From: an uncultured Gemmatimonadales bacterium
GTDB lineage: Bacteria > Gemmatimonadota > Gemmatimonadetes > Gemmatimonadales > GWC2-71-9
NCBI GenBank assembly: GCA_963825055.1
Contig: CAWGSK010000012.1
Span: forward strand, 576,001 to 640,000
Length of the DNA stretch: 64,000 bases
Reading direction: 5' to 3'
Made by a program: the position numbers and the translations under genes. Position 1 is the first letter of the stretch; each line of letters starts with the position of its first letter. The notes beneath the pieces are model-generated. The model was not told the DNA's origin and searched no databases. It saw only the letters and a program-made list of their open reading frames with translations. Of the stretch, positions 2,102-20,355 are shown piece after piece.

Positions 2102-2110
2102 AGACCGGGG

Positions 2111-2140
2111 AGATTAACTCCCCCGCCGCTTCCGGGTCAA
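2111..2140 (-). promoter_or_regulatory. Putative sigma70 promoter for the small gene, tRNA-Val and the TPR gene
   Basis: TTGACC-N18-TAATCT ending 9 nt before the ATG at 2101. Confidence 0.55.
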
Positions 2141-2229
2141 GCACCGCCCCTGCACGTCTCCTCATGCTGCCGGAAGTGTCCCCTGACGAGGCCACCCGGG
2201 ACACGTCAGCACCCCCCGCCACGAACGCC

Positions 2230-3240
2230 TCAGGGCCCGGGTGCGGAGGGGCCTCCATCACTATGGCCTCCCGCGCCCGGAAGCGCGGTGGGTTCAGTCA
2301 CACCCTCGGGATCGTCAGGTGGCGGCGCGGGCCAGCCACGGTCCAGGGCGGCGCGCCTCGGCCGGTCCATGCGCCGGCGGTTCCAGGCGAGGAACCCGAG
2401 CGCGACGGCAATGACCCCCCACATCCCACCCGCCGCCAGCCAGATGAAGAAGTTGTACCGGCGCCGGAGCCCGCGATGCCATTCGCTTTCGAACTGACCG
2501 GTCGTGAGCCCGGTGGACGCACGGAGCGCCTGGTCGAAGTCCTCGTCGTTTACCAGGCGCGTCATGAACGGCTCGAGTTGTCCACCGGGAATCCGGCGCT
2601 GGATCTCCAGCACGGCCGACATGGCCAGCGCATAGGCGTCCTCCGCCTCGCTGGAGCGGCCACGCAGCCCGGCATCGAGCGTGCGGAAGTCCGGGAGCCG
2701 CCCGCGAAGAACCGTCCATGACAGGCGAGCCGCATCCAGCCGGTCCCACTCCCCGCTCGCCATGCCCGCATAGCCCTCGTCAAACCAGAGCGGCAGCCGG
2801 ACGTGCACCGCGTCGTGCAGCGCGAGGTGGGCCAGTTCGTGGCGCAGCGTCCTCGGGAGTTCGCCGAGATCGGCACGGAGAAGGATCGTCCGGCTTGAGG
2901 GAAAGGCGAGCGCCGCGCCCCACGATGGCGCCCTGCCCTGCGTGAAACGGCGCATCGCCGTCTCGTCCCGCACCACGACGAGTCGAAGGGGGCCCGGGTC
3001 GCGCCGGCCGAGTCCGGGCCAGTCAGCAGGGCGGTCGGCGATTTCGGCCAGGCCGACCGCAAGGGAGGCCTGCGCCTCCGGGGCTACCACCACCACGTTT
3101 CCCACGCGCACGGACCGGTAGCCCGAGTCGGGCTGCTGCGCCCGGACCGGGACCGTGACCGCGAGGAGAGCCGCGGTCAGGCCGAGCCGGAACGCGGCGG
3201 CTCGCCACCACCGGCGACGAGCTCGAGCATTTCCCGACAC
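2230..3240 (-). CDS. Peptidase MA-like (gluzincin) exported, membrane-anchored protein; start uncertain
   Basis: HELAH zinc motif followed by PLWFDEGYA, signal-like N-terminus, C-terminal TM helix. Confidence 0.7.
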   Translation of the reverse strand: MSGNARARRRWWRAAAFRLGLTAALLAVTVPVRAQQPDSGYRSVRVGNVVVVAPEAQASLAVGLAEIADRPADWPGLGRRDPGPLRLVVVRDETAMRRFTQGRAPSWGAALAFPSSRTILLRADLGELPRTLRHELAHLALHDAVHVRLPLWFDEGYAGMASGEWDRLDAARLSWTVLRGRLPDFRTLDAGLRGRSSEAEDAYALAMSAVLEIQRRIPGGQLEPFMTRLVNDEDFDQALRASTGLTTGQFESEWHRGLRRRYNFFIWLAAGGMWGVIAVALGFLAWNRRRMDRPRRAALDRGWPAPPPDDPEGVTEPTALPGAGGHSDGGPSAPGP

Positions 3241-4046
3241 CGTTTGCCCCACGGGTTGAAGCGGTTGGCCTTGGCGCCGTCCTCCCACGCCCGCCGCGCC
3301 TCGTTCCTCGCGCCGGAGAACCAGCGCGCGCGTCCCAGCTCGTACCACGCTTCCACCAGGTTCGGCCCTATCTCCAGTGTCTTACGGAAGAATGCCTCCG
3401 CATCCTCATACATGTCCCGCTCGAGATAGACCAGGCCGAGGTAGAAATGCGCGTAGAGCATGGCTTTCGGATCGTTGTTGAGCCGGATCGCCTTGGACAG
3501 GTGCTCGATGGCCTCACCAAAGATGCCCTTCTTCAGACAGATGTACCCGACGTTGATCCGGGCCAGCGAATTCTCCGGCTCGCGCATGAGCACGCGGGAG
3601 AAAGTTGACAGAGACTCGTCATATTCCTCGTGCAGCATCTGGGCCCAGCCGAGCAGGCTCTGCGCCTGGGTGTCCTCGGGCGCCAGGTCCAGCGCCTTGC
3701 GCAGCGCGTCGATGGCCCCGACGTGATCCCCGAGCGAGATGAGGCTCCAGCCCTTTTCGACAAACGTCGATGCTCCCAGGTGATCGGCGTGCAGTATCGG
3801 GCGGGCGGCGGCGAACTGGGGGCCCGAAGGCCGGTCGCCCCGGCGCGTCTGCTGCTTGTAGCGGTCCACCAGGGTGCGGATCTCCTCCCGCAGTTCGCCC
3901 AGTTCCTGGAGCGCCGTCTCCACTTCCTTGAAGAAACCGATGATGTCGCGCTTGATGGATTCGAGCGCGGCCGGGTCGGGCTCGGCCCCCAGTCGCCTGT
4001 CGAGTTCGGCGTACCGGGAACGGAACGGCTCGAGTGGGGCGCTCAT
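3177..4046 (-). CDS. TPR protein with N-terminal coiled coil (289 aa)
   Basis: About 5 TPR units (ALDLAPEDTQAQSLLG, AIRLNNDPKAMLYAHFYLG); ATGA overlap with cheW. Confidence 0.8.
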   Translation of the reverse strand: MSAPLEPFRSRYAELDRRLGAEPDPAALESIKRDIIGFFKEVETALQELGELREEIRTLVDRYKQQTRRGDRPSGPQFAAARPILHADHLGASTFVEKGWSLISLGDHVGAIDALRKALDLAPEDTQAQSLLGWAQMLHEEYDESLSTFSRVLMREPENSLARINVGYICLKKGIFGEAIEHLSKAIRLNNDPKAMLYAHFYLGLVYLERDMYEDAEAFFRKTLEIGPNLVEAWYELGRARWFSGARNEARRAWEDGAKANRFNPWGKRCREMLELVAGGGEPPRSGSA

Positions 4047-4540
4047 GAGCGCTTCCGGCTCCCGCGCGCGTCGGCGGCCGCGGTGGCCACCCCGGCCAGG
4101 GCGAGCCGTTCCTTAGAACTGAGCAGCCGTCCGGCGTTCAGCATCAGGATGGTGCGCTCGCCGCGACGGACGATGCCCGAGAGGAACTCGGCGGCGAGCC
4201 CCCGCACGATGGGCGGCGGCGGGGTAATGGTGGTGCTGTCGATCCGGAGAACCTCGATCACCTGGTCCACCAGGACCCCGACCCGGTCATCATCCAGCAG
4301 CAGGATCATGATGCGGACCTCCTCGGTGAGGCCGGCGGGGACCTCCAGGCGCTTGCGCAGGTCCACCACTGGCGCAACGCCATCGCCGTAGCCGACGACA
4401 CCCTCCAGGAAATCCGGCGCATGCGGGACGCGGGACGGACGCTCATAGCGGAGAATCCGCTCGAGCTGGAAAATATCGAGTGCGAATTCCTGGTCACCGA
4501 CCCGGAATACCACAATCTGGATTTCGTCGTCAGTCGGCAC
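4043..4540 (-). CDS. cheW: Chemotaxis coupling protein CheW
   Basis: QIVVFRVGDQEFALDI, VPHAPDFLEGVV, VGVLVDQV; GTG start 6 nt after GGAGG. Confidence 0.9.
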   Translation of the reverse strand: MPTDDEIQIVVFRVGDQEFALDIFQLERILRYERPSRVPHAPDFLEGVVGYGDGVAPVVDLRKRLEVPAGLTEEVRIMILLLDDDRVGVLVDQVIEVLRIDSTTITPPPPIVRGLAAEFLSGIVRRGERTILMLNAGRLLSSKERLALAGVATAAADARGSRKRS

Positions 4541-4979
4541 CACTGGCCTCCACCGGCTGCAACCTGGCCGCGAGCAGTTCGAGATCGAGCACCGGCACGT
4601 AGGCTCCTGCCTGGCCGGCCAGTCCTGCCGCCCACGGCAGCGGGGCGCCCTGTTCCACCGGACGCAGTTCTTCGTGAATGATCGCGACGGCGTCGTCCAC
4701 CTTGAGGCAGAGCACCCGCTCATGCACCCGCATGATCACCCCCATTCCTCCCATCGCCCCGTCTGCATCGTCGTCCCCGGCCGGTCCGAGCAGCCGGGAC
4801 AGGCTGAAGAGCGGGACCAGCCGGTTGCGCGCCGGGACGACCCCGAGCAGCGCCGTCGCGGTCGCCGGCACCGGGAAGTGCTCCGGCACGTCCACTACGG
4901 CTTCGACCGACTCCACCGGGAGCCCGATGCGGCGTCCGCCCGCCACCACGAGCAGGAAGGAGGCGACGCGAGGCGTCAT
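4530..4979 (-). CDS. cheW: Divergent CheW-domain protein
   Basis: [37 protein letters not shown]. Confidence 0.75.
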
Positions 4980-6037
4980 GCGACGGCCCGGTAGAGCAGC
5001 CCCGAGACATGCTCGGCGATGCGGCCGAGGGGCAGGACGACGTTCGCGCCGCCGGCCTGGACCGCGGCATTGGGCATTCCGTAAACCGTAGAAGTCGAGC
5101 GATCCTGCGCCACGCCGTAACCCCCCGCGTCGTGAATAGCGCGCAGGCCCGCCGCGCCGTCCCGCCCGAGTCCGGTCAGGACCACACCGATCGCACGGGG
5201 GCCATAAATCCGGCTGATGCTCTCGAAGAGCGGATCGGCGGCGGGGCGGACGCCCCAGATGGACGGTGACTGGTCGAGTGTAATGACGGGGCCGGCGGGG
5301 CCATCACCCACGCGCATATGATAACCGCCCGGGGCGACATAGGCGGTATCCGCCTGCACCACCGTGCCCTCCGACGCCTCCACGACGGCGAGCGCGCTCT
5401 GCGCGGCGAGGCGCGCGGCCAGGCCGCGGGTGAAATCGGGTGGCATGTGCTGCACGATGAGCACCGCAGCCCCGGTGCCGGTGGGCAGGTGCGGCACGAC
5501 GTCGGCCAGCGCGCGCGGCCCCCCGGTGGAGGCGGCGATGGCGACGGCGCGGGTCGCGGCCCCGATGGAACGCGAGGGCCGGGGAGGCGCCTGTGAGGGT
5601 CGGGCGAGGACCGGAAGCCGGCCGATGTCGGCCGCGCGAGCGGCGTCGAGCGCCTCCAGCAGCCGCGGTGCCAGCGCCCGGATGCCCTCCCGGCTCGGGC
5701 GGTTCTCCTTGGCCACGATCTCCACCGCGCCGAGTTCCAGCGCGCGGATCGCGCCCGCGCTGCCCGACCCGGCGTGGGAGCTGAAGACGACGATAGGGGT
5801 GGGGATCTCCGACATGATGTACCCGATCGCGCCCGCCCCGTCCAGCTGGGGCATCTCCAGATCCATCGTGATGAGGTCGGGGTGGTACTGGTGCACCTTC
5901 TGGAGGCCGTCGATTCCGTTCCGCGCGGTGGCCACGACGGCATACCGGCCGGAGTCATTGATGATCTCCGTGAGCATCTGCCGGATGAGCGCACTGTCAT
6001 CCACGATCAGCACCTTCGGCCGCTCATCAGATGACAT
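4976..6037 (-). CDS. cheB: Chemotaxis methylesterase CheB (receiver + methylesterase)
   Basis: VLIVDDS, TMDLEMP receiver; ASTGGP, VQHMP, TGLGRDG catalytic Ser/His/Asp. Confidence 0.95.
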
Positions 6038-6506
6038 ACTCGCCCTGTGCCACCGTGCGCACGCGGATCTCTCCGGTGTCGACACTGAACCAGAGAGACC
6101 GGCCCGCGTTGCCACCGACGAGCTCACCGGTGATGGGGATCGCGTGCTGGTTCAGCACGCGGCGGACCGAGACCACGTTGCGTTCTCCCATCTGGATGGA
6201 CCCCGGCGCGCTCAGCAGGGCGAAAAGGCCCGCCCCGCCAATCAGCCGGGCAGTAATGCGACCCGCATCGGCGCCCCGGGCCTGCATGGCCACGACCAGC
6301 GCCGGCACGGCGGTCTCCGGGACCTTGGCCGGGTTATCGCTCCGGGCCAGCGTGCGGGACGGCAGCATGATGTGCGCCAGGCCGCCCACCTTGCCCGCGG
6401 GGTCGTAGAGCGCGATCGCCACGCAGCTGCCGAGGCCCAGGGTGACCAGCGTATCCCCCGCGCCCCCGGTGTTCATGTCGGCCACCCGTACCATGATGTC
6501 GCTCAT
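6027..6506 (-). CDS. cheD: Chemoreceptor glutamine deamidase CheD
   Basis: [28 protein letters not shown]. Confidence 0.93.
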
Positions 6507-7318
6507 CCGGCGAGCCGGTAAATGCGTTCACGGACATCCACTATCTCAAAACGTTCACGGATGGGGCCGAGTATGGTTTCCACCTTTCCCAGGACGAGGA
6601 GCCCACCCGGGGCGAGGGCACGGGCGAACCCCTCAAAGATGCGGTCCTGCCCCGCGCGGTCGAAGTAGATGAGCACGTTGCGGCAGATGATCATGTCGTA
6701 GGGCGCCGCAACCGGCGGGTCACGATGCAGGTCGAGCCGGGCGACGCGCACCCGCCGCCGCAGCCGCTCGCTGATCCGGAGCTGCCCGCCATCCGGTTCG
6801 GTGTAGCGCTCGACGAGGGCCGGAGGAGTATCCTTGAAGAGGATCGTGGGATACAGGGCCGCCGCCGCGCGTTCCAGCGAGGCGCGGTCGATGTCAGTTG
6901 CATCCACCGTGACGCCCCCGAGTGCCCCGGGCCGACCGTTGCGTTCCGCGACCTCGGCCACCGCCATGATCAGGGAGTACGGCTCCTCGCCTGAGGCGCA
7001 CCCGGCGCTCCAGAGGCGGATCGGAACCCGCTCGAGCAGGCCGGCGAGCAGGTCGTCGCGGAGCCGGGCCCACAATTCCGGGTTCCGGAAGAAGGTGGTC
7101 ACGTTGATCGTGAGCACGTCGGCCAGCTTCCCGTACTCCGCCGGGTCGCGCTCCAGGACCTTGAGGTAGTCCTCGTAGCTTTCCACACCGTGTGCCCGCA
7201 TCCGGACCGCGATCCGCCGCTGAAGGCAGCGCGGCTTGTAGGACGCCGGGCAGAGCACCCCGTGGTCCGCGATGACTCGCGTGAGCGCCTCGAATCCGGG
7301 ATCCACCGGCGTGCTCAC
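6503..7318 (-). CDS. cheR: Chemotaxis methyltransferase CheR
   Basis: LTINVTTFFRNP, WSAGCASGEEPYS, ATDID, DMIICRNVLIYF; GTG start overlapping the upstream stop. Confidence 0.95.
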   Translation of the reverse strand: MSTPVDPGFEALTRVIADHGVLCPASYKPRCLQRRIAVRMRAHGVESYEDYLKVLERDPAEYGKLADVLTINVTTFFRNPELWARLRDDLLAGLLERVPIRLWSAGCASGEEPYSLIMAVAEVAERNGRPGALGGVTVDATDIDRASLERAAAALYPTILFKDTPPALVERYTEPDGGQLRISERLRRRVRVARLDLHRDPPVAAPYDMIICRNVLIYFDRAGQDRIFEGFARALAPGGLLVLGKVETILGPIRERFEIVDVRERIYRLAG

Positions 7319-8928
7319 TGCCCCGCCCCCAGCGTCTCGAGGTTGGTGCGGGCCAGCTCGTGCCCGGGATTGATCGCCGTCGCCCGCTCCCAGCAATGTC
7401 GCGCCGTGTCGGGGTCACGCTGCCGGTACGCGATATTGCCGAGCTTGAAGTAGAGGTCGTCTCCCAGCTCGGGCGCGAGGCGCGCCGCCCGCTGGTACGC
7501 GTCGCGGGCTTCGTCATACCGTCCCGCGCGGTACAGCAGGTCGCCGAGGTTCTTGGTGATCTGCGGAAGGGTTGGGGCCTCCTCCAGCGCCTCACGGACG
7601 AGCGACTCGGCCTCGCCCACATCGCCCCGCAGCTCCAGCAGGACGGCGAGATTGTTCCGGAGGACCGGGTTCGAGGGCCATGCCGCGATCCCCTCGCGGC
7701 CGACTTCCACCGCCTCGTCCACGTCATCCTGCAGGGCGGCGGACATCATGGCTGCCCAGAACCACAACGGCGATGGTGTCGCGTCCCCCCAGGCCTCGCG
7801 CGCATCGGTGAGCCGGTCCCGGGCCTTCGCGGCATCGTCCCTCCGGAGCGCCAGGATGGCCCAGCCGGTCAGCGCGGCGGGGCCTGCGCCCAGGTCCACG
7901 GCCCTGGCATACGCCCCCTCAGCGTCTTCATCCTGTCCGAGGTGCTCGAGGGCGACACCGAGATTGTGGCACACGTCGGCCCGGTCGCCGCCCAGGTCCC
8001 GGGCGCGGGCGAGGGCGTGCACGGCGTCGCCCCAGCGGGACTCCCGCAGCGCAATCTGGCCGAGCTGCCGGGGCGCGTCAGGATCAGCTGGACGCAGTTC
8101 CTCCACCCGACGGTACTCGCGCTTCGCTTCCTCGAGCATGCCTGTCTTGTAGAAGGCGACTCCCAGGTTCCGGTGCTCCTCCACCCGGACATCCCGCGCC
8201 CGCGGTGCCGCCGTGGCGGTGGTGCCGGTCCGGTGCAGGAAGCCCGCGGTGAGGAGGCCGTAAAGGGCCTGCCCGACCTCGAACTCCACCAGGCCGGCGT
8301 CCTCGATGAGCTGGCGGATGTCACGGGTGCCGTCCAGCAGGGGCAGCAGCCGCTGCTGGTGCGGCGACAGGCTCACGTCGGAACGATCGACGTGGTCGCT
8401 GTCCAGGGTGAAGATGATGTCGAAGCTGGGGATTTTCTTCTCGATAATGCTCCACTCGTCCACCCGCCTGGCACCTTCGAGGAGGAGCGACTCGGGATTG
8501 ATCTGGACGAGGAAGTCCTGCTCGTCGGGCGTGATGCCCGCCTCAAAGTTGAACGTGCCGCTGTTCCAGGTGAACAGATAGTAGACCGCCTCCTCGATCT
8601 GGAGCCGGATATACGACTCCAGGTCGGCCCGTGAGATCGCGCCGTCATCAACCAGGATCTCCCCGAGTTTCCTGCCGCGGTCGGTCGCCTGGCGGGCCAT
8701 CGCCTGCTCCAGTTGCGACTGGCTGATCTGCCCGTTCTTGACGAGGATATCGCCCAGGCGGTCCCGGCGGTTTACGATGGACGCGTAGGTGATCCGGCCA
8801 CGCTCGAAGTAGATGTATCCGAAGTTGTGGCGGTCGGCAACGGCAAGACAGCCGGTCTTCCGTCCGAGCGCGAGCAACTGGAGGACGTCCGGGAGGCTCG
8901 CTTCCTTGAGACTGCCGCGGATCGCCAT
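7315..8928 (-). CDS. DUF4388 (PatA-N/PATAN-like) domain + MshEN-like insert + TPR protein (537 aa)
   Basis: GSLKEASLPDVLQLLALGRKTGCL, W.SGTFNF, LLLEGARRVDEW; RLGDILVKNG repeat; C-terminal TPRs. Confidence 0.85.
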   Translation of the reverse strand: MAIRGSLKEASLPDVLQLLALGRKTGCLAVADRHNFGYIYFERGRITYASIVNRRDRLGDILVKNGQISQSQLEQAMARQATDRGRKLGEILVDDGAISRADLESYIRLQIEEAVYYLFTWNSGTFNFEAGITPDEQDFLVQINPESLLLEGARRVDEWSIIEKKIPSFDIIFTLDSDHVDRSDVSLSPHQQRLLPLLDGTRDIRQLIEDAGLVEFEVGQALYGLLTAGFLHRTGTTATAAPRARDVRVEEHRNLGVAFYKTGMLEEAKREYRRVEELRPADPDAPRQLGQIALRESRWGDAVHALARARDLGGDRADVCHNLGVALEHLGQDEDAEGAYARAVDLGAGPAALTGWAILALRRDDAAKARDRLTDAREAWGDATPSPLWFWAAMMSAALQDDVDEAVEVGREGIAAWPSNPVLRNNLAVLLELRGDVGEAESLVREALEEAPTLPQITKNLGDLLYRAGRYDEARDAYQRAARLAPELGDDLYFKLGNIAYRQRDPDTARHCWERATAINPGHELARTNLETLGAGQ

Positions 8929-10898
8929 CAGGACAGTCCCTCGAGCAGGCGGTCCGCGGGCGTTGGCCAGTCCCAGATCATCTTCTCCCGATTCCGCACG
9001 ACACCGCGCCCGATGACCCCGCTCGTCCGCGAACCATTGCGCCGTGGGGGACGCGGCGCCGCGCCCTCGAGCACGTCGCGGGCGAACCCCGCCGAGAGGG
9101 TGGCGGACTGGGACTCCGCCTTACGGGCCAGGCGCTGGACGATCTCCTGGAGCGCACGCACACTGTCCACTGCGTGGCCCGCGAGGTACTGGACCAGCTC
9201 CGGGTCAGCGGCTTCACCATCGAGCATGTTCCGCACAATGGCCCGCCGGACTTCCGGGCCGGGCACGGGCAGCTCCGCCACGAGGCCACCTTCGAGCCGG
9301 CTGGCGAGGCGCGGGGCGAGACCCTCGAGTTCGCCGGGAGGCCGGTGCGAGGTGAACATCATCTGCCGCCCCTGCTCCTGCAGATGGTTGAACAACCAGA
9401 AGAGTTCCTCCTGGGTACGGTCGGTGCCGGCGAGCAGGTCAATATCGTCCAGGAGGAAGGCCGTGGCTCGGCGGTAGCGTTGCCGCCACCAGTCCACCCG
9501 GTCCTGGTCGATGGCCGCGATGAGTTCTTCCACGAACTCCCGCGCATTGAGGCACGCAACGACCGCATCGGCCTGGGCCGCCAGCAGGTTGCCCACCGCG
9601 TGCAGCAGGTGAGTCTTCCCGGTGCCGGGGGGGCCGACCAGTACCAGCGGGTTGTAGCGCTGGCCGGGGGAGTCAGCCACGGCCAGTGCGGCCCGCACGG
9701 CCACCCGGTTCGTCTCGCCCTCGGCAAAATCCTCCAGCTGCCAGTGGGGGGAGGGCGCCGGCAGCGGGGTAGCTCCTTCCCGCGCCGCGGCGACCAGTTT
9801 CTCGACCTCGGCCACGCGGTCCGGGTCGCGGAAGGCCGGGTCTCCGGCCACGGACGGGTCAATGGCCTCCGCCTCGGCGGCCAGCAATCGCAGCCGCTCG
9901 ATGTCGGTTTCGAACCGCTCGACTTCCTGCTCGACGTCCCGCTCGCCCGGGTCCTCGAACAGGTCGCGGAGCCGCGCCACGCGATAGCCCTCGCCCTCCC
10001 AGCGGGCGATCGCTTCCCCGAGACGCACGCGCCACTGCTCAAGCTGTCGCGCGACCGTGGTCGAGATCTCGCTCAGGAAGGAGCCGAACTCATCGTCCGA
10101 GGACGGCGTGAAGGCCGGCCCGTCTTCCCCGCCCTCCGGCGGCAATGCGTCGGCGTCCGCGGGAGGCTCCACCCCGGCACGATCGGTACGCAGGATCTCG
10201 CGGGCGCGGGCTTCGCCGAGCGGTTCCTGGTTGGCCATCTGCCAGGCGATGAGCCGGTTGAGCGCGCCGAGCAGTTCCCGGATGCTGGCGACGTCGAGCG
10301 TGGCGGCGGCCTCGATGACACCGGGGTCGAACGTGAGCCCGCGGCTCTCGGCGTGCCGGCGCAGGATGGCGACCCGGGTTTCGTAGTCCGGCGCGGCAAT
10401 ATCAATCACCAGTCCCCCGGCGAAGCGGCTGATGAGCCGCTCGTCCAGCGACTCGATTTCCGATGGGGGGCGGTCGCTCGTCAGCACAATCTGGTGGCCG
10501 GCGGTCTGCATGGCATTGACCAGCCGGAGCAGCTCGGCCTGCATCTCGCGACGCCGGGCCAGGAACTGCACGTCGTCGAGCAGGAGCAGGTCGAGTTCCG
10601 CGTAGCGGCGGCGGTAGGCATCGCCCTGCCCGGCCCCGACCGCGGCGTGGAACGCCTCGACGAAGTCATCGAGGGTCTGGTAGGCGATCCCGAGACCGGG
10701 CGCGATCGTCCGGGCGGCCTGCGCGATCGCCATCAGCAGGTGCGTCTTGCCGAGCCCGGGACCGCCATAGATGAAGAGGGGGTTATACACCACGCCGGGA
10801 CTCTCGCTCACCGCACGCGCGGCGGTGGCCGCAAGCCGGTTGGCCGCCCCGACCACGAAGGTCTCGAACCGGAATCGGTGATTCAGCTCGAGTGTCAT
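8928..10898 (-). CDS. Tandem double DnaA/Hda-type AAA+ ATPase lacking DnaA domains I and IV (656 aa)
   Basis: Two modules: FETFVVGAANRLA..YNPLFIYGGPGLGKTHL..LLLDDVQFL..TSDRPP..RLISRF and [49 protein letters not shown]. Confidence 0.9.
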   Translation of the reverse strand: MTLELNHRFRFETFVVGAANRLAATAARAVSESPGVVYNPLFIYGGPGLGKTHLLMAIAQAARTIAPGLGIAYQTLDDFVEAFHAAVGAGQGDAYRRRYAELDLLLLDDVQFLARRREMQAELLRLVNAMQTAGHQIVLTSDRPPSEIESLDERLISRFAGGLVIDIAAPDYETRVAILRRHAESRGLTFDPGVIEAAATLDVASIRELLGALNRLIAWQMANQEPLGEARAREILRTDRAGVEPPADADALPPEGGEDGPAFTPSSDDEFGSFLSEISTTVARQLEQWRVRLGEAIARWEGEGYRVARLRDLFEDPGERDVEQEVERFETDIERLRLLAAEAEAIDPSVAGDPAFRDPDRVAEVEKLVAAAREGATPLPAPSPHWQLEDFAEGETNRVAVRAALAVADSPGQRYNPLVLVGPPGTGKTHLLHAVGNLLAAQADAVVACLNAREFVEELIAAIDQDRVDWWRQRYRRATAFLLDDIDLLAGTDRTQEELFWLFNHLQEQGRQMMFTSHRPPGELEGLAPRLASRLEGGLVAELPVPGPEVRRAIVRNMLDGEAADPELVQYLAGHAVDSVRALQEIVQRLARKAESQSATLSAGFARDVLEGAAPRPPRRNGSRTSGVIGRGVVRNREKMIWDWPTPADRLLEGLS

Positions 10899-11497: not shown

Positions 11498-11500
11498 CGG

Positions 11501-12312: not shown

Positions 12313-13127
12313 GGGCCCGACTCCAGCCATTCGCGGGCCGCCCGCGCCGCCCGCACCGCCGTCAGGGCTACCCGACCCATCGGTTGCGAGGCCTCGCGTG
12401 CCACAAGGAGGAGCGTGTCTTTCGTGGGGGAGACCAGGACGAAATTGGCCCGCTCCGTCTCCACAGCCAGGCTCTCCCATTCACCGAGCTCGAGCAGGCG
12501 CGCCGCGCGGGATGCCTCCCGCGACACCCCAGCCAGCTCCGCGGAGACCTCGTCACTTACGTCCACCCGCTCCGGAGTGCGCAGCCGGCCGTCAAGCCGC
12601 CGGCCGGCCGCATCCACGAGCAGGAGTCCGCTCGCCCCCCCTGGCAGAGTGGCAAACGCCGGACCGGGCTCCGGCGCCTGAAGCTCATCCGATGGGCCGT
12701 TGACGGGGGTGGTGACCGGAGGGCGAGCCATCGCCGCGCGCACCCGGCGCACGGCGGGCTCCAGCGAGGCATCGTCCGGCAGGGCGGTCCGGGCATACTC
12801 CAGATGCTCGAGTGCGCGGGGGAAGTCCTGCGCCGTGAAGTAGAGGAAGCCGATGCCCTTGTGGGCGCCCGGATGCGCAGGGTCGAGGCGGAGGGTGATG
12901 TCCCACTCGTCGAAGGCCCGCTCGAAGTCGCCCTGGTCGGCGAGGATCCGGGCGTAGAGATCGTGCGCCGCCGGGAGCTCGGCATAGCGACCCAGCCCCT
13001 GCAGGGCAACCTTCGCCGCGGCCTCCAGCCGGCCGTCACGGCGCAGTGCCTCGCCCAGCTCCAGGAAAACCAGGCTGGTCGGGTCGGCGGCCAGTTCCGC
13101 CGTCAGCGCGCGAATGTCGTCAGCCAC
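12309..13127 (-). CDS. TPR + roadblock/LC7 fusion protein
   Basis: N-terminal DPTSLVFLELGEALRRDG TPRs; C-terminal GLLLVDAAG..LELGEWESLAVE..PMGRV roadblock pattern. Confidence 0.75.
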   Translation of the reverse strand: MADDIRALTAELAADPTSLVFLELGEALRRDGRLEAAAKVALQGLGRYAELPAAHDLYARILADQGDFERAFDEWDITLRLDPAHPGAHKGIGFLYFTAQDFPRALEHLEYARTALPDDASLEPAVRRVRAAMARPPVTTPVNGPSDELQAPEPGPAFATLPGGASGLLLVDAAGRRLDGRLRTPERVDVSDEVSAELAGVSREASRAARLLELGEWESLAVETERANFVLVSPTKDTLLLVAREASQPMGRVALTAVRAARAAREWLESGP

Positions 13128-14265
13128 TCAAGCCTCGCAAGACATGCTCCAGAGTCCCGGCCGCGTCACGGGCGGCCCGAACCGATTCGTCGTGTCCCAT
13201 TTCCTCAGGTCCGCGGGCACCAAGCCATTGCTCCCAGTGCTCCCGCGCCAAATGGAACCGTCCCAGTTGTGCCGCGGCGGTTCCCGCGTGGCGGTGTGCC
13301 GCCGCCAGCCCCGGGTCGAGCTGCAGCGCGCGCTCGGATGCACCCAGGGCATCCGCCGAGCGTCCCGCCGCGAGGAGGACCCGGGCCAGCACCAGATGCG
13401 CGAGGGGCTGTTCCGGATGCACGACGGCGGCGTCCCCGGCCGCGACCAGCGCAGCCTCGACCCGCCCGGCGGCAAGGTCGTCCTCCGCGCGTGCGATGGC
13501 CATGGCCAGCCCGCCCTCTCTCCCGATCTCAGCGGCCGGAGGCACCGCCGTGTCCTCAAGGAGGATAATGCCCGCCGTGGCCAGGCCGAAGAGCGTCTTC
13601 GCGACCTCGAACTCGGAGCGGTTGAGCGTGATGGACAGGTCATGGACGTTACGGCTGCCGTCAATGGAGGCGAGCACCTCCCACTCGAACGGCATGAGGT
13701 CCAGCGGCCCCGCGTCGGTTCCCACGGGCGCCAGCCGGGCGACGATGCCCAGATGCGGAATGCGGGTCTCGATGCGTGACCACTCGTCGATCCGCCGGGC
13801 GGCTTCCATCACGAGGGCCTCAGTCGGGATGCGGACGGCCGCTTCCATCGACATGCGGGTGGGATCGCCCTCCTCGAAGGAGAAATATCCCTCCGACCAT
13901 CCGAGGAGCTCGAACACGACCTCCTCGGTCTGCCGTCGGATAATCCGGTCCACCTCGCGGCGGCTGATCGACCCGGCCTCGACCAGGAGATCGCCGAGCC
14001 GGCGCGTGTCGCCGGCCTCCTGCAGGGCGCGCACGCGCGACAGTTCCTCCTCGGACACCTTGCCGGCTTTCAGCAGGAGACCGCCCAGCGGGTGTGGGTT
14101 GGTCCGGATCTCAGCCCCGATCACCGCGCCGCTCTCGAAATACACCGTGCCCGCGTTCTGTCGCAGCGCCGAGCGCACGCGGAGCACACCGGTCTTCCGG
14201 CTCAGGTCGAGGAGCTGGAAGACATCGTGAATGCCCAGCTCGCGGAGGGGGCCCTCGATCGCCAT
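13120..14265 (-). CDS. Second DUF4388 + MshEN-like + TPR protein (381 aa)
   Basis: GPLRELGIHDVFQLLDLSRKTGVL, WSEGYFSF, MEAARRIDEW; paralog of 7315..8928. Confidence 0.85.
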   Translation of the reverse strand: MAIEGPLRELGIHDVFQLLDLSRKTGVLRVRSALRQNAGTVYFESGAVIGAEIRTNPHPLGGLLLKAGKVSEEELSRVRALQEAGDTRRLGDLLVEAGSISRREVDRIIRRQTEEVVFELLGWSEGYFSFEEGDPTRMSMEAAVRIPTEALVMEAARRIDEWSRIETRIPHLGIVARLAPVGTDAGPLDLMPFEWEVLASIDGSRNVHDLSITLNRSEFEVAKTLFGLATAGIILLEDTAVPPAAEIGREGGLAMAIARAEDDLAAGRVEAALVAAGDAAVVHPEQPLAHLVLARVLLAAGRSADALGASERALQLDPGLAAAHRHAGTAAAQLGRFHLAREHWEQWLGARGPEEMGHDESVRAARDAAGTLEHVLRGLSG

Positions 14266-14268
14266 GGG

Positions 14269-16947
14269 TCAGGCCGTCTGGCGTGTGAGGATGTACTGGA
14301 GGTCGCGCGCACTGCGGCTCTCGGCCCGCGCGGCCAGCGCGAAGGATGATTGCGGATGCAGCCGGACCAGCCGCTCCCATGCGCGCACCGCCTCGGGGAA
14401 CCGGCGCAGTCGTGTCAGGCCGACGCCCGCGTAGTAGAGGCCGTCAGCCCGGTCCGGCACGAGGCGAAGCAGGCGCAGGAAGGCCTCGATGCCACGCTCG
14501 GTCCGCCCCGCGTCGAGCAGGGTGCGGCCGAGCAGGGCGAGCGACTCGAGGTCGGACGGGTCACCCTCGAGCGCGCCCACGAGCAGGCGGATGGCCTCGG
14601 CATGTTCGCTGTTACGCCGGAGGAGGTCGGCGAGCGCGTGAATCGCCTCGGCATACGTCGGCAGGAGGTCGAGCGCGTGCTCGTAGGCCATGCGCGCGGC
14701 GATCCAGTTCTCCCGCCGTTCCTCCAGTTCCCCGAGCTCGCGCCAGAGCTGGGCCCGGCCGGTATCGAGCTGCAACGCGCCCTGGCAGGCCTCGACCGCC
14801 GCGTCCACCTCGCCAAGCTGGGCGCAGATCCGGGCCTGGAGCTGCAGCAGGTCGGCACGACCGGGCGCGCGGGCCCGCCCGGCCCGGATCAGATCGAGGG
14901 CCGCAACGGGATCACCGGTGCGGTGCCGGACCGTGGCTGCCGCCAGCAGGCCGTCGACGTTGCCCGGATCCGAGGCGATCAGGGCCTCGGCCAGGGGCGC
15001 CGCCTCCCGGGAGCGGTCCAACGCCACGAGGGAACGCACCTCGCCAAGCAGCGCGTGAGGATCGTCGCCCAGTACCTCGCGCGCCTCGCGGTAGCGTTCG
15101 AGCGCCTCGCCGTGCAGGCCGCGCCGGGCGTACACGTCGGCCAGGAGCAGCCGGGCGGGCGCCTCGGGCGCGCCGCGCGCGATGGCGCGGTCCACCTCCG
15201 CCGCCGCCCGGTCGAGCATCCCCTTGTGCAGGCAGTCGCGCGCCAGGGCAAGCGGGTCCCCCTCGGGCGCGGGACCCGGCTCTCCCGCCCGCGGCGCGAG
15301 GTCGCGGAAGATCTGGTCGAGCAGCCGGGGGTCGAAGCTGAAGGCCTCGCCCACCTCCGCGGCACTTACGTCGCCGGAGATCTCCGGCACGATGGAGATG
15401 GTCGGGTCCTCGTACTGGAGGTCAATTGTCAGCGAGAACTTCTGCGGCACGTAGTACGGCTCCAGCTCGAGGGCGCGCTTGGTCTCCCGCAACGCCCCGT
15501 CGAAGTCGCCGAGTTGGCTCAGGGTGAAGCTCAGGTTGTAATGCGCGGAGGCGTTGTCAGGCGCGCCGTCCACGGCGCGGGCAAAGGCATTGCGTGCGTC
15601 CTCGAAGCGCTTGAGTTCAGTGAGGACGAGGCCGATTCCGTTCCACGCGAGCGGGTGATCGGTGTGATCCTCGAGCACGCGCTGGAACGCCTCAAGCGCG
15701 AGCTGGAGCCGCTGGCGGTGCAGCAGGAGGAGCCCGAGGTTGAGGCGGGCCGTCACGAGATCCGGCGTGCCCCGCAGGGCTTCCTGGAACGCGTCGGCCG
15801 CCACTTCCGTGTCCACGCCGTGCGCGAGCAGGACGCCGAGGTTGTTCCAGGCGAGGGCATACCCGCCGTCGAGATCAATCGCGCGCCGGTACGAGCGGGC
15901 TGCTTCGTCCCGGCGGCCTGCGTGGTGGAGGCAGACTCCCCGCTCGTTCCAGAGCTTGGGCGAATCCTCGAACTCGCGGATCAGTTCCTCGTAGAGGTCC
16001 AGGGCGGCCGAGAGGTCGCGGCGCAGCAGGTGGACCTCGGCGATTGCCTGCATGGCCAGGCGGCGATCCTCCCCGTGTTCCAGGGCGAGGCGATATTCGC
16101 GGAGCGCCTCGGCGTGGTATCCCTTCTGCCGGAACGCGAGACCAAGGTTGTAGTGGGCGAGGGCGCCGCCCTGGCTGATCCCGGGCCGGGTGGGCCCGGC
16201 TGGGCGGGATTCCCCGACGTGCTCCGGTTCGCGCAGTGAAAGGTTGGTGTGCGCGCGGGCGAAGGTCGGGTTCAGGGCGATGGCCTGCTTCGTGGCCGCC
16301 TTCGCCGCCTCGTGCTCACCGAGATCGCCGTACAGGAAGGCCAGGAGGTAATGCGCGTCGGCGTTGTCGGGGTTCAGGCGCAGCGCCGCCTCGAGCGCCG
16401 TGCGGGCGGGATCGTTCAGGCCGCGGTGGTACAGCGCCTCGCCGAGGTAGAACAGGGCAAGCGGGCTGTCGGGGTCGAGCTCGACGGCATGCTGGAAATG
16501 GTCCGTGGCCGCCTCGAGGTCACCGCTGGCCTTCTCGGCGAGGCCGAGCTGGATGAGGGTGGCCGGATCGTCGGGACGATGGCCCAGCAGCAGGGTGAAC
16601 TCGCGGATGGCCTCGGGGTGGTGGCCCAGGGCGCCGTAGATGCGGCCCAGTTCCCAGCGTGCCTCGAGGTCCTCACCCGAGTCCCGAATCCTCTCGCCGA
16701 GCTCGGCGACGCGACGGTCGTAGTAGCCGGTGTTGCGGTAGGCGATCTCCAGATTGGCCTGCGCGACCTGCATGCGGGGGTCGAGTTCCAGCGCGCGGGT
16801 GAACTCGCTGACCGCCTCCGGGACCAGTCCTTTCTGGAAATAGAGGACGCCCAGGTTGTTGTGGGCGCCCGCGTCGGAAGGGTCGATGCGCCCGGCGAAG
16901 GAGCGGAGGACCGCAAGATCGCGCTCCGACAGCACCTGGCCGGCCAT
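14269..16947 (-). CDS. Large cytoplasmic TPR-repeat protein (892 aa)
   Basis: Many canonical TPRs (AHNNLGVLY, AHYNLGLAF, AWNNLGVLL, AWNGIGLVL); no signal peptide. Confidence 0.88.
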   Translation of the reverse strand: MAGQVLSERDLAVLRSFAGRIDPSDAGAHNNLGVLYFQKGLVPEAVSEFTRALELDPRMQVAQANLEIAYRNTGYYDRRVAELGERIRDSGEDLEARWELGRIYGALGHHPEAIREFTLLLGHRPDDPATLIQLGLAEKASGDLEAATDHFQHAVELDPDSPLALFYLGEALYHRGLNDPARTALEAALRLNPDNADAHYLLAFLYGDLGEHEAAKAATKQAIALNPTFARAHTNLSLREPEHVGESRPAGPTRPGISQGGALAHYNLGLAFRQKGYHAEALREYRLALEHGEDRRLAMQAIAEVHLLRRDLSAALDLYEELIREFEDSPKLWNERGVCLHHAGRRDEAARSYRRAIDLDGGYALAWNNLGVLLAHGVDTEVAADAFQEALRGTPDLVTARLNLGLLLLHRQRLQLALEAFQRVLEDHTDHPLAWNGIGLVLTELKRFEDARNAFARAVDGAPDNASAHYNLSFTLSQLGDFDGALRETKRALELEPYYVPQKFSLTIDLQYEDPTISIVPEISGDVSAAEVGEAFSFDPRLLDQIFRDLAPRAGEPGPAPEGDPLALARDCLHKGMLDRAAAEVDRAIARGAPEAPARLLLADVYARRGLHGEALERYREAREVLGDDPHALLGEVRSLVALDRSREAAPLAEALIASDPGNVDGLLAAATVRHRTGDPVAALDLIRAGRARAPGRADLLQLQARICAQLGEVDAAVEACQGALQLDTGRAQLWRELGELEERRENWIAARMAYEHALDLLPTYAEAIHALADLLRRNSEHAEAIRLLVGALEGDPSDLESLALLGRTLLDAGRTERGIEAFLRLLRLVPDRADGLYYAGVGLTRLRRFPEAVRAWERLVRLHPQSSFALAARAESRSARDLQYILTRQTA

Positions 16948-16953
16948 CGGGAT

Positions 16954-17574
16954 TCAGGACAGCCGGATGGCGTCGAAGACGGCCCGGAGCGACGCCACGT
17001 CGGGCATGAGCAGGAAGTGGCCGCGCAGTCCCTCGGCCTCCTTGGCGAACTGGAACTCGGTCTCGAGGCAAAAGACGAACTCGCGCTCGTGGCCGAAGTT
17101 CAGGTAGGCGGACGTCAGCACCGCGCCCAGCAGGTCGATTACGAGGCTCGGGACGCTGGGCAGGAGCATCATCCCCATGAAGTCGCTCAGCGCGTTGAGG
17201 TAGGCGCTGCTGAGAATGTTGCCCGCCTCCTTGAGGCCGGACTGCTCCATGACGCCGAAGTCCGTCGTGGTGGGGATGGGCCGCCGGAGGAGAATGTCAC
17301 AGAGCACCTTCGCGGAGTCTTCCGGGAAGAGAATCATGGTGCGTCCCGTCAGGTCGCCCATCATGTGCATGAGCACGGCCGCGACGACATCATCCGTCTT
17401 GCCCAGCACATTGGCGACTTCCTCGAGCCGCGTGATGTTCACCTCGGGGACACTGATCATGATCTTGTGGCCCGTCATCTGGGACAGGGCGGTAGCCGCA
17501 TGCCCCGCGCCGATGTTGGCCACCTCGCGCAGGGCGTCGAGCTGCAGCGCCTCCAGGTTCCGGATGTCGTCCAT
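16954..17574 (-). CDS. cheC: CheY-P phosphatase CheC
   Basis: Two E..N motifs (DALREVANIG, SGLKEAGNIL), SVP; ATG after GAGGAG. Confidence 0.92.
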   Translation of the reverse strand: MDDIRNLEALQLDALREVANIGAGHAATALSQMTGHKIMISVPEVNITRLEEVANVLGKTDDVVAAVLMHMMGDLTGRTMILFPEDSAKVLCDILLRRPIPTTTDFGVMEQSGLKEAGNILSSAYLNALSDFMGMMLLPSVPSLVIDLLGAVLTSAYLNFGHEREFVFCLETEFQFAKEAEGLRGHFLLMPDVASLRAVFDAIRLS

Positions 17575-17583
17575 ACCCACTCC

Positions 17584-19464
17584 TCAGGTGAGAGCTGCAG
17601 CGTCGAGAATGAGCGCGGGGTGACCATCCCCGAGGATGGTGGCACCGCTGAACACCGGGAGCATGCCCCGGGGCGCATCGAAGGCCTCCACCACGATCTC
17701 GTGCTGGCCCAGAAGCTGGTCCACCACCAGGGCGGCGCGGCGCTCGCCGGCCACGAGGATGATGGTGGGCCGGCGCCCGGTTACCGCCATCGCCGGCGCG
17801 GATATCTCGAGCACGTCGCGCAGGTGGCGCGTGGGGATGACGTCATCCCGGAGCACCAGCGCCTCGCGTCCGCCGAGCGAGGTGACGCGCTCGGGATCGA
17901 ATTGCACCGTCTCCGCCACGTGGGTGAGGGGCACGGCGTACCGCTCCTCGCCCACCCCGGCCAGCAGCACCTTGAGCACGGCCAGGGTGACCGGCAACTG
18001 CATGGTGACCGTCGTGCCCCGCCCGGGATCTGTCCGGAGGCTGACCCGCCCGCCCAGCTGCCGCACGCGGGACAGGACGGCGTCCACCCCCACGCCGCGG
18101 CCGGAGACGTCCGTCACCTGCTCGGCCGTGCTGAACCCGGCGCGCGAGAGGATCCGCAGCAGCTGGTCATCCGGGAGGGTGCGCGCGTCAGGCTCGACCA
18201 GCCCCTCCTTCCGGGCACGCGTGAGGACCCCCTCCCGATCGATCCCCCGGCCATCATCGATCACCCGGATCGCGACGCCCTGACGGTCCCGCGCGGCCGA
18301 CAGCACGATCCGGCCGGCGGCGGGCTTGCCCAGCCGCTCCCGCTCGCGGGCGGGCTCGATGCCGTGGTCCACCGCGTTCCGCAGCAGGTGCAGCAGCGGG
18401 TCGCCGATCTCGTCCAGGATCGCGCGGTCGAGCTCGATATCCCCGCCCTCGATCTGGAACTCCACCCGCTTGCCGAGCTGGCGCGCGAGATCGCGGATAA
18501 TCCTGGGGTAGCGGTCGAACACCTGCCACACCGGAGTCAGTCGCACGGCGATCACTTCGCTCTGGAGCGTGTTCACCAGCCGCGTGATCCTGGCGCTCAC
18601 CGCCTCGAGCTCCGGCGACGCCGAGCCGGTCACGACGTCGGTCAGGCGGCCGCGCGCCACCACCAGCTCACCCATCACGTTCATGAGCGTGTCGAGCCGC
18701 CCGAGGTCCACCCGGATATGCCGGCGGGCGCCGCTGCCGGTCTCGCCGGGCGCGACCTCGGCATGGACAGGCGCCTCACCGATGGCGACCTCGTCGATGT
18801 CACCGGCGGAGCGGATGGCCGCCTCCAGCGCGGCGTCGTCCGCGCTGCCGTCGAAGCGGAACGAGAAGGCGCCATCGAAATCGTCACGCTCGAATGCCGC
18901 GACCGCCGGGCGCACCCCGTCCAGCCGCCCGAGGCCCTCCGCCTTCCGGAGCGCGATCGTCGCGCGGCCGCCGCGCATGATCGCGTCGCGACGGACACGG
19001 ACCCGGACCAGGCGTCCCGCGGCGGGCTCCGCCCTTGACGCGGAAGCCGCGCCGGGCATGGCAATCGGGAACTCGGCCGTGCCCATGCGGGCGGCGGCAG
19101 CATCGAGATCGGAAAGCAGCGACCCGAGATGCGCCCCGGCATCCTCGCCCCTGACGGCGATGTCGATCCCCTGTTCCAGCGCGTCCACCGATCGGAACAG
19201 CAGCTCGAGGACCTCTGGAGAGGCAGGGGTAATCCGCTCGCGCAGCAACGCGAGGAGGTTCTCCGCGCGATGGGCGAGGTCGGTGACGGGCCCGTAGCCC
19301 ATCGTCGCCGCCATGCCCTTGATCGTGTGCATGGCACGGAAGATCCCGCCGACCGGCTCCACCGAAGCCGGGTCGCGCTCCAGCTCCAGCAGGAGCCGGT
19401 TGCACGTCAGGAGATGTTCGCGACTTTCCGCGAGGAACAGCGAGGCGTAGCGGGAGACGTCCAT
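17584..19464 (-). CDS. cheA: Chemotaxis histidine kinase CheA
   Basis: Hpt FRAMHTIKG, P2 domain, HLLRNAVDHG, DDGRGID, GFST, SGRGVG, C-terminal CheW-like P5. Confidence 0.96.
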   Translation of the reverse strand: MDVSRYASLFLAESREHLLTCNRLLLELERDPASVEPVGGIFRAMHTIKGMAATMGYGPVTDLAHRAENLLALLRERITPASPEVLELLFRSVDALEQGIDIAVRGEDAGAHLGSLLSDLDAAAARMGTAEFPIAMPGAASASRAEPAAGRLVRVRVRRDAIMRGGRATIALRKAEGLGRLDGVRPAVAAFERDDFDGAFSFRFDGSADDAALEAAIRSAGDIDEVAIGEAPVHAEVAPGETGSGARRHIRVDLGRLDTLMNVMGELVVARGRLTDVVTGSASPELEAVSARITRLVNTLQSEVIAVRLTPVWQVFDRYPRIIRDLARQLGKRVEFQIEGGDIELDRAILDEIGDPLLHLLRNAVDHGIEPARERERLGKPAAGRIVLSAARDRQGVAIRVIDDGRGIDREGVLTRARKEGLVEPDARTLPDDQLLRILSRAGFSTAEQVTDVSGRGVGVDAVLSRVRQLGGRVSLRTDPGRGTTVTMQLPVTLAVLKVLLAGVGEERYAVPLTHVAETVQFDPERVTSLGGREALVLRDDVIPTRHLRDVLEISAPAMAVTGRRPTIILVAGERRAALVVDQLLGQHEIVVEAFDAPRGMLPVFSGATILGDGHPALILDAAALT

Positions 19465-19468
19465 GGTA

Positions 19469-19831
19469 TCACCCGAGGACGCGCTGCACCGCCTCGAGCA
19501 CCCGGGATGGCTGGAAGGGCTTGACGACGAAATCCTTGGCGCCGGCCTGGATCGCCTCGACCACGAGCGCCTGCTGTCCCATCGCACTGCACATGAGCAC
19601 CTTGGCATCGGGATCCGCCTTGCAGATCTCGCGCACCGCCTCGATCCCGCCCATGTCCGGCATGACGATGTCCATCGTGACGAGGTCGGGCTTCAGCTGG
19701 CCGTACTTCTCGACCGCCTGCCGCCCCGTCTCCGCTTCGCCCACGACATCGAAGCCGGCCTGGGAGAGAATGTCGCTGATCATGGTGCGCATGAAGATCG
19801 CATCATCGCAAACGAGGACGGTCTGAGCCAC
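19469..19831 (-). CDS. cheY: Response regulator CheY
   Basis: VCDDAIFMR, TMDIVMP, MCSAMGQ, FVVKPF; GTG after GGAGG. Confidence 0.93.
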   Translation of the reverse strand: MAQTVLVCDDAIFMRTMISDILSQAGFDVVGEAETGRQAVEKYGQLKPDLVTMDIVMPDMGGIEAVREICKADPDAKVLMCSAMGQQALVVEAIQAGAKDFVVKPFQPSRVLEAVQRVLG

Positions 19832-19914
19832 GCGAACGCCTCCGTGCCTTGTGCCTCGGTGATCCTGCGGCCCAAGCGGGCGGCTCCCGCCGCACTGCCT
19901 GGGAACGACTGCCA

Positions 19915-20355
19915 TCAGCCCCCGAACACGGGAGCCAGTAAGACCTCGGTATCGAGGACGATGAAGACCTCGTCACCGCGCCGACCCACGGCCCCGACGA
20001 GACGTCCGTCCACGCCGGGCAGGTCCTCCCTGGCATCGAGGGCGTCGGCGGAAACCTTCACCAGGTCAGCCACCTCATCCACCAGCAATCCGAGCGGCCG
20101 GCCGGCCACCTCCAGCAGGAGGATGGACGGGTCGTCCGGCGGCGGACCGGCATGGCGACCCAGGACCCGGCGCCCGTCCACGACCGTGACCAGCCGGCCA
20201 CGGACGTTGACCAGGCCTTCGACATTTTCCGGTGCACCGGGAATACGCGCCGCGGCCCCAGCGGGGACAATTTCCCGCACGCTCCGTACCGGTACCGCAC
20301 AGTGCAGGTCCCCGATGCGGAACAGCAGCAGCGACACCTGGGTATGGTCAGCCAT
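19915..20355 (-). CDS. cheW: Chemotaxis coupling protein CheW
   Basis: IPGAPENVEGLVNVRG, LGLLVDEV; ATG overlaps the rluD stop. Confidence 0.9.
   Translation of the reverse strand: MADHTQVSLLLFRIGDLHCAVPVRSVREIVPAGAAARIPGAPENVEGLVNVRGRLVTVVDGRRVLGRHAGPPPDDPSILLLEVAGRPLGLLVDEVADLVKVSADALDAREDLPGVDGRLVGAVGRRGDEVFIVLDTEVLLAPVFGG

Follow-up and report, generated by a model that had tools for sequence, protein, structure and literature searches.

The stretch of DNA analyzed here, which we call the window, comprises 64,000 nt of contig CAWGSK010000012.1 (positions 576,001 to 640,000; assembly GCA_963825055.1) from an uncultured Gemmatimonadales bacterium, and all coordinates are window positions unless a contig or locus is named. 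On its minus strand, from 20355 to 3177, it carries an operon of 18 co-oriented open reading frames (ORFs), in which the genes of a chemosensory pathway enclose an MglA polarity module, two PATAN-domain proteins, and a tandem ATPase derived from DnaA. The operon is real and conserved and appears to be undescribed as a system, one of chemosensory MglA control to which a new ATPase and a new family of mini-proteins belong. A literature search, light on subscription journals, turned up no account of either the operon or the tandem ATPase.

The first Che block consists of cheW (19915..20355; PF01584), which starts 8 nt inside the end of rluD, cheY (19469..19831), coding for a stand-alone receiver with conserved phospho-Asp, Ser/Thr, and Lys residues, cheA (17584..19464), with the architecture Hpt-P2-dimer-HATPase-CheW and without a fused receiver, and the phosphatase gene cheC (16954..17580), with two ExxN motifs. 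The eight inner, non-Che genes code for an 892-aa TPR scaffold (14269..16947; Pfam), a PATAN(DUF4388)-TPR protein (PATAN a; 13120..14265), a TPR-roadblock protein (12309..13127; Pfam), a short roadblock protein that may be MglC-like by analogy (11962..12312; Pfam), MglB (11501..11962; E of 2e-9 to MglB structures in the PDB, with its C-terminal helix conserved), MglA (10895..11497; E of 1e-72 to a PDB MglA), the tandem DnaA-domain-III ATPase (8928..10898; Pfam, model, and fold match), and a PATAN(DUF4388)-winged helix-TPR protein (PATAN b; 7315..8928; Pfam and model). The second Che block contains cheR (6503..7318; Pfam), cheD (6027..6506), in which the catalytic Cys and His are invariant, cheB (4976..6037), a receiver plus methylesterase with conserved Ser-His-Asp, and two further cheW genes (4530..4979 and 4043..4543; Pfam), and the string ends with a 289-aa coiled-coil/TPR protein (3177..4046), which stays with the core where the che genes have been lost.

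The junctions measure, in gene order, 83, 4, 3, 6, 3, -8, -4, -1, and 3 nt and then -4, -1, -4, -4, -11, -4, -14, and -4 nt (negative values are overlaps), sizes that depend on the start codons chosen in the analysis. Overlaps make up 11 of the 17 junctions, the nine around the inner genes are each 6 nt or less, and the only real gap is that of 83 nt between cheW and cheY. A preliminary description, made from the sequence of this region, had listed 18 co-oriented, mostly overlapping genes with these domains and an equally tight spacing of the inner eight, and the ORFs and Pfam matches agree with it on both points. A mechanical scan for promoters and terminators stayed at the level of shuffled sequence, with nothing above it.

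The arrangement is widely shared within the phylum. Among the matches listed for 150 other Gemmatimonadota genomes (151 with the source genome), the operon ATPase occurs in 97 and its cheC in 98; 91 genomes have both, and in 83 of these the two genes share a contig and lie at most 10 kb apart, whereas in the remaining 8 they are on separate contigs. PATAN b was matched in 106 of the 150, once weakly, and no match to the operon was obtained in most sampled genomes of families f6, f7, and f9 to f12. We then took 99 loci around ATPase or cheC matches, from relatives labeled Gemmatimonadota and mostly Gemmatimonadales (locus frequencies differ from genome frequencies), 84 of which are bracketed by rluD and a downstream TPR or peptidase gene. 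The complete gene order is found in 47 of these 84 loci, and every departure from it is a deletion, with no rearrangement. PATAN b is the only gene present in all 84, followed by an AAA+-bearing ATPase gene (82), mglA (81), cheA (78), and mglB (75). Since at least five families of the class share the nested order, it cannot be attributed to chance, and the neighborhood comparison bears out the idea of a conserved, tightly coupled cluster of Che, MglAB, PATAN/MshEN-TPR, and DnaA-clade ATPase genes.

Among the signaling and polarity components, catalytic motifs are intact in CheA, CheY, CheC, CheB, CheD, MglA, and the first AAA+ domain. The cheY product is 77 to 92% identical across relatives. 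MglA is, judging from its residues, a Group-1-type MglA family GTPase, with the motifs G1 to G4, the catalytic R53 in 89 of 94 sequences, Q82 in 92, and the G1 Lys in all 94; the adjoining mglB codes for a roadblock protein with a predicted GTPase-activating role. The best NCBIfam models for the Che proteins are those of halophile CheA and CheY (CheY_Halo) and Thermotoga-type CheC and CheD, all below cut-off, and one receptor of the source genome has 2ch7 as its best PDB match. The operon resembles the F1-type systems of Thermotoga and halophilic archaea, with which it shares a CheA with P2, CheC, and CheD. Unlike these and unlike Dif, it has no flagellar target in most carriers, a polarity core nested inside, and no receptor gene in the operon. 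In Dif (F13), a receptor gene heads cheW-cheY-cheA-cheC; here the same W-Y-A-C order is present, and the receptor gene is missing from the operon.

In overall design the closest known counterpart is the Frz-MglA/MglB/MglC/RomR-RomX/RomY-SgmX circuit of Myxococcus xanthus, which also comprises a chemosensory kinase, a Group-1-type MglA with catalytic Arg and Gln, MglB with further roadblock proteins, a large TPR protein, and type IVa pili (in our case, presence in the genome only). FrzE is a CheA fused to a receiver, and FrzZ consists of two receivers. The operon CheA has P2 and no receiver, its CheY is a single receiver, and CheC and CheD are present; the operon works like Frz-MglA-SgmX but falls outside Frz for want of a FrzE-type kinase. 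It also differs in its two PATAN-TPR proteins, in the DnaA-derived ATPase, and in that its mglA is a second one beside a dnaX-linked copy. Only cheY and cheB carry receivers in the operon according to Pfam, and RomR, RomX, and RomY were not the object of a dedicated search. In M. xanthus, mglA is reported not to lie near its partners in the genome (PMC4316618), whereas here all the parts form one string. MglA recruits the TPR protein SgmX there, leading to pilus activation (PMC11580455), and the 892-aa TPR scaffold is a likely analogue of this effector.

Other known clusters share parts of the design. Like cyanobacterial Tax/PatA, the operon is a chemosensory cluster with PATAN proteins, but instead of the PATAN-receiver fusion of the PatA type it has PATAN fused to a winged helix and TPRs, with CheY separate and MglAB and the ATPase added. 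Actinobacterial conservons (CvnA-D) also place a kinase, a roadblock protein, a winged-helix protein, and an MglA-type GTPase in one operon (PMC4316618), but here the kinase is CheA rather than a membrane kinase, MglA is of the Group-1 type, and DUF742 was not matched. The nearest prior art we found is a row in Table S2 of that same paper, in which Wuichet and Sogaard-Andersen list MglA-MglB-PATAN neighborhoods: for Gemmatimonas aurantiaca, GAU_1409 is given as 'PATAN>MglA>-PATAN>'. Compared by this table row alone, it is like the reduced order of four of our loci (L021, L041, L096, and L097). The gene between mglA and PATAN is unlabeled in the row, che genes are absent from the supplement and main text as far as these were covered, and DnaA gave no match in the main text or in the supplement parts covered.

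The ATPase codes for two AAA+ domains (D1 and D2) separated by a helical linker and followed by a tail. In its model (mean predicted local distance difference test [pLDDT], 84), both domains have the DnaA domain III fold, with a template modeling (TM) score of 0.94 to Bacillus subtilis 8bv3, and the tail is of low confidence. DnaA domains I and IV gave no Pfam match in the protein, and both the model and the PDB alignment stop at domain III. Over 90 sequences, Walker A/B, sensor I, the arginine finger, and sensor II of D1 are each found in 81 to 90, and D2 keeps Walker A/B, the arginine finger, and sensor II but shows no conservation at the position of sensor I. Each of the two domains has a clade of its own, with the single-domain forms (L039 and L040) grouping with D1, and the pair stems from an old duplication. 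The Hda model TIGR03420 gave 189.5 against a cut-off of 194.8, even with the two domains summed. The ATPase is neither DnaA nor Hda: each half shares with them the fold, the Walker A and B motifs, the arginine finger, and sensor II, and D1 alone also has sensor I, but the protein has two domains per chain, no domain I or IV, and a new linker and tail that can be kept alone as a mini-protein.

Such a protein could suggest that pole identity, for asymmetric or budding division, is determined by the core or linked by it to chromosome replication, with the ATPase sensing or binding DNA or DnaA. The domain III fold with arginine fingers in both halves would fit this, as would the budding reported for Gemmatimonas cells (PMC7844134), the presence of divIVA about 6 kb upstream in the same co-oriented run, and the persistence of the core without che genes. 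The single-stranded DNA contacts assigned to N187, I190, R202, and K222 in B. subtilis DnaA (PMC10721633 and PMC8287927) are partly retained in D2, where N187 is lost but I190 is hydrophobic in 79 of 90 sequences, R202 is kept in 86, and K222 is K or R in 71. In D1, by contrast, the essential I190 has become His, Gln, or Asn and N187 has become Glu, and it is D1, not D2, that the single-domain forms keep; both domains can also go. Besides lacking domains I and IV, the ATPase coexists with a dnaA of normal type (471-aa frame, contig C20 of the source genome), and most genomes of f6, f7, and f9 to f12 do without a detectable operon. We regard this explanation as quite doubtful and a replication role for the ATPase as unlikely, which weakens the cell-cycle function that had been suggested in the preliminary description.

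PATAN b, whose start is coupled to the stop of the ATPase gene, was modeled (pLDDT, 91) as a PATAN domain with a helical insert, a winged helix, and TPRs; its fold search returned generic TPR proteins only, and the winged helix had no match to DUF742. The insert (residues 55 to 107; 8608..8766) carries an MshE-type motif (NF053729) of 55.3 bits, over the cut-off of 38, and at least one strict motif of this type is found in 73 of 97 PATAN b proteins, so we can predict this MshEN-type insert as a site for cyclic di-GMP (c-di-GMP). In PATAN a the motif is degenerate (31.1 bits, below the same cut-off). In one clade (L033 to L037), the insert and the last TPR have been cleanly deleted, and the AAA+ domains are also lost in this clade. 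A close paralogue of the PATAN b N terminus occurs in four genomes, two of them without che genes, and in two it is fused to a protein of about 950 aa with a CarboxypepD_reg-like domain (L107:2716-5577 and L109:6858-9776), next to similar long genes.

The ATPase gene comes in forms with two, one, or no AAA+ domains. The six loci without both domains still keep a short gene before PATAN b that codes only for linker helix A (residues 270 to 287, motif EFxxFL; 10038..10091 in the window), which forms its first half, and the C-terminal tail (residues 637 to 656, motif EKxxWxWP..R..EE; 8931..8990), which forms its second half. This mini-gene has 60 to 73 codons in five loci and up to 86 in L035, and its stop is coupled to the start of PATAN b in all but one of the six loci; five of these loci form one clade, and L111 is outside the tree. 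A profile built from five mini-genes matched 1011 database proteins of 33 to 128 aa, some of them possibly fragments, and the best 120 of these all contain both motifs. In 92 of 94 loci, the tail lies in the 150 nt upstream of PATAN b, the two misses having a diverged tail by eye, and it does so in 79 of 79 loci of a second set, which shares genomes with the first (the best 80 of 574 loci, 79 with Gemmatimonadota-type titles and one titled 'bacterium'). Control stretches gave no match to the tail motif, and the linker alone had no match in an Atlas search. Because of the mini-genes and of the tail conservation before PATAN b, we conclude that selection keeps the two-part peptide, with the AAA+ cores as an optional layer. 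The tail likely folds on binding, and the peptide likely docks the ATPase onto PATAN b, as suggested by gene coupling, co-retention, and rate covariation (see below). Two variant proteins, P0141 and P0129, carry the ATPase linker behind an Fe-hydrogenase-like domain in place of the AAA+ domains, P0141 with the tail too; their N-terminal part belongs to a Gemmatimonadaceae family with 519 relatives and a match to an Fe-hydrogenase-like C-terminal domain. An apparent ATPase-PATAN fusion (P0013) was rejected as an off-frame artifact.

The source genome (87% complete, 6% contamination) offers a context for this machinery. It has a single cheA and a single cheC among the genes found, three receptor genes, all on other contigs, and no receptor gene inside the operon. 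Its only DUF4388 genes found are the two of the operon, and there are 12 GGDEF matches. A second mglBA pair follows dnaX-ybaB-recR (L045:8326-9508; G000:C12:190376-191501), its mglA being a paralogue 50% identical to that of the operon, and a second mglA match occurs in nearly all f1 and f2 genomes; the dnaX-linked MglA has an insertion of about 25 residues near its C terminus. The first proposal of a self-contained system is not supported, since receptors and a further mglBA lie elsewhere and each half persists alone in relatives. Type IVa pilus genes are present, with pilB (with a c-di-GMP motif) and pilT over cut-off, a pilC match below cut-off, a pilM match, and 15 pilin motifs. No flhA was matched in this 87% complete genome. 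The gene was found in 41 of the 151 genomes and, among the matches listed, in 23 of the 91 carriers of ATPase plus cheC, leaving 68 without an flhA match. Complete loci come from genomes without flhA in 45 of 47 cases, and 21 of the 23 flhA-bearing genomes have a reduced locus; as kin are not independent and 'reduced' includes the loss of one cheW, this inverse association is a trend only. The operon does not serve to steer flagella.

In our reading, the operon encodes a second polarity module built on MglA, which receives chemosensory and c-di-GMP signals and determines the sites of type IVa pilus assembly; we give this reading a probability of roughly 0.55. The link to pili is likely and comes from the genome content, from the inverse flagella trend, and from two analogies: that of MglA and SgmX, and that of a cyanobacterial PATAN protein with a helical insert reported to bind PilB1 and PilC (bioRxiv 10.1101/2021.06.11.447907). 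Of the outputs considered in the preliminary description, pilus polarity fits best, given pilB-pilT-pilC, pilM, the pilins, and the lack of an flhA match. In four f2 genomes, cheB and cheW are separated by an inserted gene for an ExeA-like ATPase (L019:16898-17719, L023:16899-17717, and also L091 and L093), which we count for the pilus; this ATPase had no match at an E of 1e-60 in the other sampled genomes.

The same wiring might have another output, namely envelope, exopolysaccharide, or secretion functions downstream of surface sensing, as in Dif. The cheW-cheY-cheA-cheC block follows the Dif order, MshE-type motifs are also found on glycosyltransferases (NF012033), and the PATAN b paralogues of four genomes include the two fused to a long CarboxypepD_reg-like protein. 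Moreover, the inserted ATPase of the four relatives is nearest to the model of a PEP-CTERM/XrtA system ATPase (TIGR03015; 201 and 184 bits, below the cut-off of 324.5). Yet MglA, MglB, roadblock, and TPR proteins form the known polarity kit, the loci examined are free of polysaccharide genes, and the sole PATAN partners tested in the cyanobacterial preprint are parts of the pilus motor, so we consider an envelope or secretion output unlikely.

If the operon places pili, scattered receptors would signal to CheA and then to phosphorylated CheY (CheY-P), with CheC, CheD, CheR, and CheB providing adaptation. CheY-P would act on the MglA module, consisting of the 892-aa TPR protein, PATAN a, and the three roadblock proteins. 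PATAN b would be the output hub, contacting PilB and PilC by analogy with cyanobacterial PATAN and reading c-di-GMP through its predicted MshEN insert. The DnaA-derived protein would bind this hub with its two-part peptide (helix A of the linker and the tail at the C terminus) and hold or gate it, and the AAA+ domains would add an ATP-dependent oligomerization switch as a dispensable layer. In this way MglA and MglB, through the TPR and PATAN adaptors, would set where PilB and PilC assemble pili. A more speculative extension, which we think improbable, is that the DnaA cores form an ATP-dependent filament that anchors the c-di-GMP-reading PATAN-TPR hub at one pole via the two-part peptide, and that the DNA contacts of D2 could tie pole identity (of pili or budding) to chromosome state; if true, one machine would integrate phosphorylation, GTP, ATP, and c-di-GMP.

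Natural deletions and evolutionary rates help to dissect these steps. In genera g15 and g28, the che genes are gone from both sides, and what remains is the inner eight genes and the 289-aa TPR gene; the two genera fall in separate clades of the tree from locus genes, so that che was lost twice; L086 shows a third loss in progress, and L031 retains only ATPase and PATAN b. A receptor match is absent in four of the five genomes that lost all che genes at the locus and also in G039, from which cheW and the P5 domain of CheA have disappeared. The two che-less lineages, which arose independently, both show the loss of eight conserved residues in the 892-aa TPR protein and of the conservation of its residues ~165 to 235. 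Rate covariation (98 branches, 52 complete loci, 120 gene pairs) placed ATPase and PATAN b as the top pair of the 120 (rho = 0.45), each covarying next with the nonadjacent 289-aa TPR protein (0.34 and 0.33, respectively). Because of the deletion patterns and the rate covariation, we distinguish three units: Che, Mgl, and ATPase-PATAN b-TPR289. Indirect evidence that Che signals into the core comes from the order of the genes, from their being inherited together, from a CheY that is extremely conserved despite having no flagellar target, and from the eight TPR residues. The N terminus of the 892-aa TPR protein was tried as a CheY-binding peptide like that of FliM and rejected, as it is kept in the che-less L028. 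In two unrelated loci (L042 and L043), cheY-cheA-cheC is kept, cheW, cheR, cheB, and cheD are gone, and CheA has no CheW-like P5 domain; by its domains, this CheA is a receptor-uncoupled kinase.

Several observations weigh against a pilus-placing module with chemosensory input. PilM is found in 146 of 151 genomes, families without the operon included, so the co-occurrence with pili does not discriminate, and none of the examined loci has a pilus gene inside the operon or beside it. The second mglBA of nearly all relatives could run pilus polarity instead. No target of CheY was identified, and the rates of Che and Mgl do not covary above background (mean, 0.035, against 0.13 for the rluD control with che); the CheY coupling to the GTPase switch or the ATPase that the preliminary description had envisaged is putative. 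Each half survives alone, with the core lacking che in L027 to L030 and L085 and che plus PATAN b lacking the Mgl module in L033 and L034, and G093 has two receptor matches although its locus has lost the che genes. In genus g11 (L017, L046, and L087 to L089), MglA has lost the catalytic Arg and switch residues and is, from these changes, a pseudo-GTPase, with CheWYAC kept, mglB still conserved, and the large TPR protein and PATAN a truncated. Last, mutual information with average product correction (MI-APC) between the two-part peptide and PATAN b or six other neighbors was not above that of a control stretch, at a depth (155 pairs, ~77 effective) too shallow to count either way.

Some of these results would be expected if two separate modules were merely cotranscribed, the core having been inserted into a che operon with both on a housekeeping transcript: either half is lost independently, the Che and Mgl rates are uncoupled, and the cluster directly follows rluD. 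But a nested order kept in at least five families, with no rearranged version in the 84 bracketed loci, is hardly what one would predict of such a coincidence, and neither are the loss of the eight TPR residues in both che-less lineages and a CheY so extremely conserved in carriers most of which offer it no flagellar target. We therefore hold mere cotranscription to be improbable and retain the chemosensory polarity module as the preferred interpretation.

The upstream rluD ends a co-oriented housekeeping run, yggS-divIVA-PNP-ileS-dksA-lspA-rluD, in which divIVA occupies 26253-26837, about 6 kb from the operon, and a dksA/traR zinc-finger gene occupies 21850-22233. In genus g42 (L021, L041, L096, and L097), two copies of lspA directly precede the operon, and mglB, the roadblock genes, and cheR are not detectable in it. 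Downstream, at 53-3180 in the window, come genes for a peptidase MA-like protein and for a TPR protein of 565 aa whose N terminus is signal-like, and most relatives have them too. Farther away, 40189-54582 holds a glycogen/trehalose cluster with alpha-amylase-family genes, including glgE and a 1709-aa fusion. Elsewhere in the source genome, L116:6546-8930 (G000:C7, ~118500-120900) codes for a second ATPase of the PilB/GspE type, with an MshEN domain at its N terminus and a receiver at its C terminus, possibly a phosphorylation-controlled pilus or secretion motor, and two PilT-like matches of equal length and score lie near pilin motifs (G000:C12:109248-110069 and C24:3311-4132), possibly through duplication or contamination of the bin.

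The chemosensory route to MglA is known only in part for Myxococcus, whose components are dispersed. Here candidate parts stand in one operon across a whole order, and natural deletions have already taken it apart into the Che input, the Mgl module, and a unit of ATPase, PATAN, and TPR proteins. An ATPase of the DnaA clade is apparently used outside replication, and an unnamed family of ~70-residue proteins marks its likely docking site. We found no paper on motility control in Gemmatimonadota in our literature search, and the operon gives a first handle on surface behavior in this phylum.

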